NCBI GenBank assembly: GCA_963693365.1
Contig: CAVNZM010000010.1
Location: forward strand, 1,364,001-1,428,000
DNA from: Amoebidium appalachense
Taxonomy: Eukaryota > Protista > Ichthyosporea
DNA: 64,000 nucleotides
Direction: 5' to 3'
Numbering within the stretch: position 1 is the first letter of the stretch; each line of letters starts with the position of its first letter. Below, in pieces: positions 34,901-37,900 of the stretch. Made by a program: the position numbers and the translations under genes. Below the pieces are notes generated by a model. It worked only from the letters and a program-made list of their open reading frames with translations. It had not been told where the DNA came from and searched no databases.

Positions 34901-37900
34901 TACTGCACGAGAAGGTGTGTGTGTGTGGGTGTGGGTGTGCGTGTGTGCGTGCGTGTGTGCGTGCGTGCGTGCGTGCGTGCGTGCGTGCGTGCGCGCGCGT
35001 GCCTGTGCCTCTGCCTCCGCCTGTGCCTATGCCTCTTCGTGTGTTTGTGTGTGTGTGTGCGATTGTCTCTCTCTGTGTGTGGTCTGCCTGTGTGTGTGTG
35101 TCTGTATGTGCGTGTCTGTGTGTCCGTGTGTGTGTGCGTGTGTTTTCGGCTCTGGGGGTACGTGGGTGTGTGCGTCCGCATGCTCGTGCATTGGTGTGTG
35201 CTTGTGTATATGTGTGCCATCATTCATATCACATGTGTGCCTTTTTATAGTGTCTTTTTTTTTTTTCTTCCTGTGAGCACTTTTGCACTCCAATTCAACT
35301 GCCATTCCACCCCCGTGCGGCCACCAACCATGACCCAATGCTCAGTTCATTGATTTTTCCTCAGTTGCATGGTCGTCCATTGGAGATCCCGAAACTTCCA
35401 CCGGCGCCAAAACCCACCCTCCTGAGTGGGGCACTTCCAAATATGGCGCTTGGCACAGAGTGAGTTTTCCTTATTTGGCGTTGATTTGTTTTCTTGTGTG
35501 GTAGTGATTAATAAGTGGTGTTATTTCCTTGTGTGTGGTTGGTTTGCTTGTTTGTGTGGTATGGATTTATGTTGCGTTGTTGTATATAGTTGATGTTCTT
35601 TATGTATTATTATTATTATTATTATTATTATTATTATTATTATTATTATTATTATTATTATTATTATTATTATTATTATTATTATTATTATTATTATTAT
35701 TATTATTATTATTATTATTATTATTATTATTATTATTATTATTATTATTATTATTATTATTATTATTATTATTATTATTATTATTATTATTATTATTATT
35801 ATTACGGCTGTGCATTATTAGGATGATTGGATTTTCTATTACACGTGCTTAATCGAAGGAAGTTGGGCGGATAGGTGAGTGTTATCTTATCGGATACCTG
35901 TGACCGAAAATTCTGGTTCGGGAAATGTGTCACTTTTGAGCCCCCCTTCCCCACCCTCCCCCTCTCCTTCCGCCACCCACCCACCCGCCTCGCCCTCCCT
36001 CTCTTTCCACTTCCCCGGGTTCTGTTTTTTTTGGGTGATGTTGTTTTTGTTTTGTCTTTTAATGTCTTCACTTTCATAATCCCTCCCCACTAATGCATTC
36101 CTCCCCCCTCCACCCCCCCTGTTCGGGTGGTTGACTTGAACCCCCCATGAGGACGGGCTCTGCTTTTGATGCATACTCTTGATGTGTACCTTTGTGTAAG
36201 CTCCTTTCTTTTGCCAAGTTTGCGTGGTGTTGCCAATCATGAACAATGCTTTACACTCTCTAACACATTCTGCTCCCCCCCCCCCCCCCCCCCCCTCCCT
36301 TGGCCCCTCCCTCCCCCCCCCCCTCTTCTTTAGTGCATGCACACAGACAAGCACACTCGAGGCGATGCGTGTGTCCATTGACGAATATCTCAAGCGGATG
36401 CTGGCTACCCCGGATGGGCCCCAGACACTGCGTGCATTTGTCGAGCAGAAAGTCGATTTCCCTGTCGCACTGCTTACTGGAGATAGAAGGGTTGGTGCCC
36501 TCTTCCCCCTCCCCCCCCTTTCCCTCCAGGAGACATCTTTACTTCCATGCAACCGGGCATGGTTGCTCTGTGTCGTGCATCTGTAAGCACATACGCGTTT
36601 GTCGCTGCACTGCATTAGTTTGCACACACATCTTCACCGTTTTGCTCACCTTGCTTGCATAAGCAACCCTGCTCGTCTTTGATCAAGACGGGTTGACCCA
36701 CCCAAGTTCAGTTGATGCTGCTGTCTGAGTTGGAGCGTCGTATATACGCGGGCTAAGGGGTCGAAACTCAGACGCAATTGATGACTTGGGCCCTCCCTGA
36801 GGATGGGCTCTGCTTATGACGCATACTGTGCGCATGGCTGATGCTGCATACTTGAATGTTTGCCTTTGCATGTGTCCTGCATCATGCTTCTCATCGTCTA
36901 TGCGTACTTCGTACTGTGTTCCGCATTCAAACCCCCCCTGTCTTCTTTCAGAGGTGTCCTTTCAGGACAGACCACTGTGTGGAGACATCTTTACTTCCAT
37001 GCAACCGGGCATGGTTGCTCTGTGTCGTGCATCTGTAAGCACATACGCGTTTGTCGCTGCACTGCATTAGTCTGCACACACATCTTCACCGTTTTGCTCA
37101 CCTTGCTTGCATAAGCAACCCTGCTCGTCTTTGATCAAGACGGGTTGACCCACCCAAGTTCAGTTGATGCTGCTGTCTGAGTTGGAGCGTCGTATATACG
37201 CGGGCTAAGGGGTCGAAACTCAGACGCAATTGATGACTTGGGCCCTCCCTGAGGATGGGCTCTGCTTATGACGCATACTGTGCGCATGGCTGATGCTGCA
37301 TACTTGAATGTTTGCCTTTGCATGTGTCCTGCATCATGCTTCTCATCGTCTATGCGTACTTCGTACTGTGTTCCGCATTCAAACCCCCCTTTCCCTCCCC
37401 CCCCCCCCCCCCCTCCCCCCCCCCCCCCCCCTTCCCCCCCCCCCTCCAGGCAGGCAGGCAGACACGCACACATCCCCCCCCCCCCCCCCCCCCCCCCTTT
37501 CGGATGGGCCCCAGACACTGCATGCATTTGTCGAGCAGAAAGCCGATTTTCCTGTCGCACTTCTTACTGGAGATGGGAGGGTTGGTGCCTCTCTTTCCTT
37601 GTTCCCCTCCCCCCTCCCCCTCCCCCTCCCCCCCCCCCCCCCCCCCCCCCTCCACCCCCGGGGCAATTCACCAGGCAGGCAGGCAGGCAAGACGACAGAC
37701 AGACAGACCCTCCCTCCCCCCCGCCTCCCCCCCCCCCCCCCCCCCCCCTCCCCTCCCCCTTCTCCAAAAAAAAAATACTCACCCATCACGTATACACACG
37801 CACATGCACGAACACACGTACCAACACACACATACACACACACGCGCGCGCGCGCGCGCGCACACACACACACACACACACACACACACACACACACCAT

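Follow-up and report, generated by a model that had tools for sequence, protein, structure and literature searches.

A hammerhead-like RNA with a probable split core, predicted to cleave itself, in a tandem repeat of Amoebidium appalachense

The window analysed here is a 64,000-nt stretch of the ichthyosporean Amoebidium appalachense (contig CAVNZM010000010.1, positions 1,364,001 to 1,428,000; all coordinates below are those of the window), and it carries a dispersed, partly tandem repeat in which an initial annotation had noticed a structured RNA, possibly a permuted self-cleaving motif with the order of elements of the hepatitis delta virus (HDV) ribozyme. Judged from sequence, the motif appears to be a previously undescribed form of the hammerhead class, with a well-supported fold and predicted cleavage. 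On the explanation that we favour as a whole, at a probability of about 0.7, it is a hammerhead whose conserved blocks run in the order S-G-C, whose block C is split, and which is predicted to cleave itself after position 37183. That the fold derives from a hammerhead is very likely; given such a fold, a split stem II is likely; and active cleavage by the motif is probable.

The hammerhead core, its stems and its conservation

All 13 core nucleotides of the hammerhead (C3-U4-G5-A6-N7-G8-A9, G12-A13-A14-A15.1, U16.1 and H17; PMC3088659) are present in each of the two families of the motif, represented by copies A and B. In copy A the GUU site lies at 37181-37183, GAAA at 37215-37218 and CUGAGGA at 37249-37255, giving the block order S-G-C; this was the sole order found by our descriptor, and the orders CGS, GSC and SCG of types I, II and III were not seen. 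Stems I, II and III close beside the core with Watson-Crick pairs (G-C, G-C and A-U/C-G respectively) that are kept in both families. Stem I forms a second pseudoknot (GGAG/CUCC), which the initial annotation had missed. Stem III comprises 9-13 pairs in all six window copies that have the three blocks, and together with a kink-turn it makes up the long arm. A three-nucleotide bulge with tandem G.A/A.G pairs between two helices, the defining features of a kink-turn (PMC4382518), occurs in both A and B, the latter having the bulge AGU followed by G.A, A.G and A.G. Statements about PMC4382518, PMC10085705, PMC4209133, PMC8557442 with its supplement, and bioRxiv 10.64898/2026.07.22.740005 refer throughout to the parts of these sources available to us. 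The cut is predicted between 37183 and 37184, 3' of GUU.

The GGGUC strand of block G has two candidate partners, GACCC upstream and GGCUCU (37258-37263) two nucleotides past A9. With the upstream strand as stem II, the strand that follows stem II pairs with the strand that precedes stem I, forming the extra helix of SGC hammerheads, and two helices, termed P0 and P1, appear from their position to be inserted between A9 and G10.1 (Table 1).

In a comparison of the two families, no difference was seen at any of the 13 core nucleotides or at the three pairs that close the junction, and 77 of the 110 surrounding aligned columns match. One two-sided compensatory change was found in each of stems I, II and III plus the linking helix, for instance at step 5 of stem II, where the C-G of A is U-A in B, and at the third pair of stem I, which is A-U in A and G-C in B; three more changes are one-sided with the pair retained, one of them again in the linking helix. 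The covariation claimed in the initial annotation amounts to four two-sided and three one-sided changes between two independent sequence types only. Broken pairs were one P1 pair and stem I pairs 4 and 6 in B, stem II pair 6 in A, and stem I pair 5 in both. The P0 strand is identical in A and B, so there is no covariation in that helix. In assembled contigs from public sequencing runs, the family B variants T25804C (2.7%) and A25858G (4.1%), unphased, would jointly convert a U-A pair of stem II into C-G, and T25807C (44%, unphased) converts U-G into C-G.

On both strands of the window, the hammerhead descriptor, which allows any block order, matched the six copies with all three blocks retained and nothing else. 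Dinucleotide shuffling gave a match of any kind in 2/3000 sequences for the A tandem and 4/3000 for B, and an equally strong one in 0/6000. Among 98 unrelated control loci (331,841 bases) there were 12 weak matches, of which five had the split arrangement; none was equally strong. Because the descriptor was composed after the motif had been seen, these chance figures are somewhat generous. Stem III had at most six pairs in all of 102 chance metagenome matches to the core letters. A pattern scan of metagenome contigs returned 98 stretches, none of them a true relative by the stem tests, which we reused as a null set, and a scan of viral contigs returned no match.

The sequence strings on which the initial annotation was built stand where it had placed them (GCATAAGCA at 37109, TGACCC at 37146, CGTATATACG at 37191-37200, GCTAA at 37204, GGGTCG at 37210 and TGCTTATG at 37263), as do the start of copy B at 25763 and GTGAA at 5777. 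Its nested stems and long-range pairing are present, the former folding as described in A, where the closing stem, first hairpin and long arm had pair probabilities mostly of 0.84-1.0, and the latter probably being stem II. Its hairpin CCCTCC-CTGA-GGATGGG is better read as the stem I strand followed by the catalytic CUGAGGA, and the GCUAA that it likened to J4/2 falls in a variable linker (GCUAA, GUGAA or GGGAA). The folding-energy z-scores were -3.11 (+ strand) and -3.28 (- strand) for copy A, and -1.22 and -1.04, not significant, for copy B. As A is significant on both strands and B on neither, energy is no guide to the strand; the hammerhead core and G-U changes are, and they support the + strand as had been proposed.

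The motif resembles the type-SGC hammerheads (HRIMA-1 and variants; Eckert et al. 2023, PMC10085705) in its S-G-C order, full core and pseudoknotted stems I and II, and in an 'interaction' helix that joins the far ends of these stems at the same position. The published examples, however, are of about 80 nt, come from metatranscriptomes only and have an uninterrupted block C, whereas in the window motif the stem II strand probably lies upstream, with two helices between A9 and G10.1; a kink-turn on both strands connects stem III with the linking helix, and a high-copy genomic repeat is the home of the motif. SGC, CSG and GCS hammerheads all cleave in vitro, SGC at rates of 0.007-0.19 per minute (PMC10085705). 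Hammerheads of non-long-terminal-repeat retrozymes and minimal Penelope-like elements (PLEs) are likewise carried one per unit by short non-coding tandem units, which are proposed to be non-autonomous PLE derivatives and to act as dimers (PMC4209133; bioRxiv 10.64898/2026.07.22.740005), but these are circularly permuted type I forms with a tiny stem III, unlike the reverse block order and long stem III found here. In a literature search, with most subscription journals outside its coverage, we found no account of a hammerhead with a split core, and none of permuted hammerheads from the PLEs called Naiads; for alternative hammerhead forms a 2026 paper cites, in its available part, only Eckert et al. 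and one fungal-virus study.

Table 1. Positions of the proposed motif elements (copy A) and of repeat copies in the window
Feature	Position	Strand	Remarks
Closing helix P0, 5' strand	37110-37121	+	pairs with 37257-37270; first helix inserted between A9 and G10.1
Hairpin P1	37123-37145	+	second inserted helix, adjoins stem II strand; pair probability 0.84-1.0 in A
Stem II 5' strand GACCC	37147-37151	+	G10.1 = 37147; upstream of cleavage block; partner 37210-37214
Linking helix 5' strand	37153-37162	+	joins far ends of stems I and II; partner 37234-37242
Kink-turn	37163-37169	+	3-nt bulge GUU; G.A, A.G, U.U with 37231-37233
Block S	37175-37189	+	stem III strand; U16.1 = 37182; H17 = U37183; stem I strand GGAG
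S-to-G linker, variable	37190-37209	+	self-complementary 10-mer or hairpin; includes GCUAA
Block G	37210-37225	+	stem II 3' strand GGGUC; G12-A13-A14-A15.1 = 37215-37218; stem III strand
Block C, first half	37243-37256	+	stem I 3' strand CUCC 37245-37248; CUGAGGA 37249-37255 (G5 = 37251); U37256
P0 3' strand	37257-37270	+	37258-37263 doubles as weaker alternative stem II strand
Family A full unit, about 452 nt	36938-37389	+	ends CATTCAAA plus C run; second of tandem pair
Family A copy, 5'-truncated, complete motif	36529-36937	+	head-to-tail before the unit at 36938-37389; predicted cut after 36731
Family B unit, about 590 nt	25417-26010	+	5' part unlike A; complete motif 25764-25918; predicted cut after 25835
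Family A copy, complete motif	24996-25405	+	immediately 5' of unit B
Second truncated-then-full family A tandem	39751-40324	+	complete motif in second unit
Family A copy, 5'-truncated	33173-33422	+	stem II strand and blocks S, G and C kept; lacks P0 5' strand and most of P1
Decayed third family	5738-5821	+	blocks S and G; A15.1 changed to G

The repeat and its likeness to Naiad elements

BLAST detected 20 copies of the repeat in the window, 19 of them on the + strand. Truncation has removed part of the 5' end in 17 copies, with scattered end points, and three start at a unit boundary. The 3'-end motif leads into a C run in 17 of its 18 matches, an association in which the cause may run either way, C runs also being plentiful on the + strand. 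Between 22001 and 43000, homopolymer runs of at least 10 nt on the + strand comprised 64 of C and 7 of G, the same orientation as that of 19 of the 20 copies. The truncated-plus-full pairs at 36529-37389 and 39751-40324 share a tandem period of 452 nt, and the head-to-tail joint (37385 to 36940, with 0-8 C-rich letters between) was seen in the assembled contigs of all four public sequencing runs. The repeat family is very abundant in the host, with 14,088 and 9,246 contigs carrying it in two DNA runs, contig depth not being a copy number. Two further runs, guessed to be RNA, also carry the unit and the joint in their contigs; since the DNA runs do too, contigs in the presumed RNA runs say nothing on expression or circles.

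The family A and B copies at 24996-26010 lie in the sense orientation between two probable exons. The tandem pair at 36529-37389 is flanked by a duplication of about 95 nt (36411-36504 and 37501-37595, 92.6% identical), consisting of a probable exon end with its donor site, which could have arisen as a large duplication of the target or by transduction of the flank. Other subfamilies, decayed or distinct, lie at 26507, 32057, 36146, 40396, 50790, 50951 and 6139; they share GATGGGCTCTG and the 3'-end motif and have an altered CUGANGA. Loose ends in the contigs include families with a shorter stem III or with GGGCC preceding GAAA.

Partial tandems with 5' truncation and a common 3' end, together with a bias towards insertion at simple repeats (the 17 of 18 3' ends running into C), are what is found in PLEs. 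We consider it likely that the repeat is a non-autonomous PLE of the Naiad type. Naiads and most Chlamys PLEs have been reported to be without canonical hammerheads, some having unexplained core pieces that are flagged 'HHR_core' or 'HHR_half_core' (Craig et al. 2021, PMC8557442). Using the supplement of that paper, we read by eye all 81 places of CGAAAC, 30 of the 62 of CTGATGA, 14/23 of CTGACGA, 14/25 of CTGAGGA and 23/43 of CTGAAGA, and, for each of six longer motif terms, the first three places. The layout of the window motif was recognized in at least 10 of the 54 Naiad consensi, representing seven independent types with different stem letters: a hairpin, the stem II strand, a linking strand, S, G, the second linking strand, the stem I strand, CUGANGA and a closing helix, near the 3' end of the consensus. 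Six of these consensi take their names from the header that follows (Bfor, Amil, Aacu, Anas, Obim and Ovul) and four were placed by file position only (one Clytia, two Morbakka and one Darwinula), the hosts being a ctenophore, cnidarians, a crustacean and octopus. Their stem II strands include GGCUCC/GGAGCC, GACACC/GGUGUC and GACGCC/GGCGUC. At least eight further Naiad consensi, mostly from nematodes, have an intact C-S-G order, one of them with a GUU site like that of the window. The best evidence for the split comes from the Naiad consensi, which were compared by eye and not by a computed alignment. In place of the permuted hammerhead, a conserved GC-rich motif of another kind was noted near the ends of two hemichordate Naiad consensi and of a passage in the bivalve region (supplement S5, PMC8557442), and could be another ribozyme class.

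The repeat thus shares with Naiads its partial-tandem, 5'-truncated copies, its microsatellite targets and the RNA layout near the 3' end, and differs in having no open reading frame, in targeting C runs (PMC8557442) and in its non-animal host. MRC1-type Chlamys elements are also non-autonomous and head-to-tail, and belong to a group biased towards insertion at (C)n and (CA)n (PMC8557442); the ribozyme layout was not seen among the Chlamys matches listed.

Weighing the alternatives

Were block C intact, the motif would be an ordinary type-SGC hammerhead, with a two-nucleotide insertion followed by GGCUCU (37258-37263) as stem II, and the GACCC pairing would be an off-state. The descriptor accepts this arrangement in all six copies, with six base pairs in A and four in B, and insertions of 1-2 nt are known (PMC10085705). 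However, the downstream duplex is the weaker one (-7.2 and -3.8 kcal/mol in A and B, vs -10.0 and -8.8 for the upstream strand), two of its six pairs are broken without compensation from A to B where the upstream strand compensates, and P0 must unfold to free it. Furthermore, in none of the seven independent split-type Naiads can the strand after CUGANGA form stem II. We therefore regard an intact block C as quite improbable. It is also unlikely, to a less marked degree, that the fold derives from a hammerhead and no longer cuts, or depends on a protein to do so, being kept as a signal that the partner reverse transcriptase uses for binding or priming. This would suit the position of sense copies among probable exons, the lack of any copy beginning at the predicted cut, the strained closure within one unit (a gap of about 52-64 Å by crude estimate) and the U.U third pair of the A kink-turn, which is of the box C/D type and as such protein-dependent. 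Poor cutting in vitro by other PLE hammerheads points the same way (PMC4209133). What argues against a non-cutting signal is that both families, and distant Naiads, retain precisely the catalytic nucleotides while the stems change, and these nucleotides are not obviously needed for binding.

The permuted HDV-like ribozyme of the initial annotation, with GCUAA as J4/2, has in its favour the two pseudoknots and the occurrence of HDV-like ribozymes in other retroelements. Yet a search of both strands of units A and B, using a loose pattern based on the family consensus, gave no candidate for P3/L3, an Rfam search of the 64-kb window at gathering thresholds gave no match, and the C proposed as catalytic is replaced by U or G in the other families, so that the invariant C of J4/2 is missing; the hammerhead core, in contrast, accounts for every conserved letter. 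Such a ribozyme is extremely improbable, and the earlier proposal holds in that the motif is an RNA fold under selection on the + strand, probably permuted and self-cleaving, as far as its letters tell, with the hammerhead in place of HDV as its family. Hardly more credible is a selenocysteine insertion sequence (SECIS)-like or small nucleolar RNA-like kink-turn element in the arm with the remainder due to chance. A GA-quartet core does sit above a 7-bp helix and below one of 12-13 bp, and some Naiads carry SECIS elements (PMC8557442), but an apical AAR motif is missing where one would be expected, as is a selenoprotein frame, and stems I and II and the core would go unexplained, the combination having occurred in 0/6000 shuffles.

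Several observations weigh against the split, self-cleaving hammerhead that we favour. None of the 20 window copies starts at the predicted cut, the nearest starts lying at -11, +23 and +25. Block C, that is CUGAnGA with its stem II strand, has been assumed never to be more than 2 nt apart (PMC10085705), and within the window alone the intact-block arrangement likewise fits. Stem I is short, at 3-4 bp, and GUU serves as the site. In its lowest-energy fold, copy B has GCUCGU paired to the GAGGAUGGGC segment, which would hide the core. The contigs vary at just 24 of 448 and 27 of 586 places, so the absence of common core variants is weak evidence and no selection is shown; a U4C core variant is present at 0.3%, and G37142A, which breaks P1, reached 16% in one run. 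The by-eye reading of the Naiads includes two mismatches in Aacu and a stem I of 2 bp in Bfor, and none of the Chlamys passages among the matches listed has the layout. A Pfam scan of the 161 reading frames of the window found no reverse transcriptase or endonuclease remnant and no frame with an N-terminal GIY-YIG domain, CxC motif and reverse transcriptase, so the link to Naiads rests on the RNA layout. C-run targeting is listed for Chlamys, Naiads being listed with (TA)n (PMC8557442).

Proposed action and other features of the window

In the mechanism that we propose, A9 and G10.1 would be brought together across a four-way junction formed by P0 and P1, the chain leaving A9 through a single U into P0, passing P1 and re-entering at G10.1. 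Transcripts of tandem units would be cut after 36731 and 37183, freeing an RNA of 452 nt (36732-37183) that the partner reverse transcriptase could copy into C runs; such copying would yield 5'-truncated and head-to-tail copies. The cutting of tandem retroelement transcripts to unit-length RNA appears more likely than the release from introns suggested initially. PLE hammerheads have been described to act as dimers and to cut slowly, with stems II and III stacked and stem I beside stem II (PMC4209133). A crude geometric estimate for the present motif, which has 16-17 steps between kink and core and a linking helix of 10 pairs, leaves a gap of 52-64 Å for a linker of 1 nt, so a single unit would need the linking helix to melt. 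Two units could instead act on each other by swapping partners, which would be feasible at any arm length, and this modelling tips us slightly towards two-unit action. Such a requirement would explain why single sense copies, e.g. at 24996-26010, are tolerated in introns.

We give an even chance to the fullest version, an active split hammerhead of reverse order whose A9/G10.1 break is rejoined by the four-way junction, acting as a two-unit ring bent by kink-turns, and constituting the missing ribozyme of Naiad-type elements, also outside animals. If it is true, this would be the first large genomic home and known job for non-circularly permuted hammerheads. Two published views would need revision, at least as worded in the available text: that CUGAnGA and its stem II strand are inseparable and non-circular hammerheads missing from the genomes of known organisms bar one bacterial sequence (PMC10085705), and that Naiads have no hammerheads and proliferate in their absence (PMC8557442). 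The four-way junction between A9 and G10.1 would also offer a new insertion point for engineered ribozyme switches. What the window brings to this picture is a pair of families showing covariation of their own, C runs as a target and a non-animal host, and the analysis supplies an exact predicted cut and a descriptor that is absent from standard searches.

Elsewhere in the window, a two-exon gene at 59948-61533 encodes a slime-mould-type cyclic AMP receptor (Dicty_CAR, E 2e-19). No relative above 39% identity was found among 1.84 billion representatives; the ten best had 32-39%, and the two of these with a named organism, an amoebozoan and a chlorarachniophyte, 32-37%. Word-index protein searches made to place the host, including one with a third exon, gave no match. 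An exon of a YPEH2ZP zinc-finger gene was found at 15116-15397 (E 1e-14), and exons of a Duc1-like gene at 22938-26260 (E 0.0024, below the cut-off). A dispersed repeat of about 390 nt occurs at 12383-12761 and, inverted, at 62525-62912 (90% identity). Short tandem arrays lie at 42045-42597 and 49563-50064, the region 6500-7410 is rich in near-repeats of GATT/AATC words, and 35590-35805, about 215 nt, consists purely of (TTA)n.

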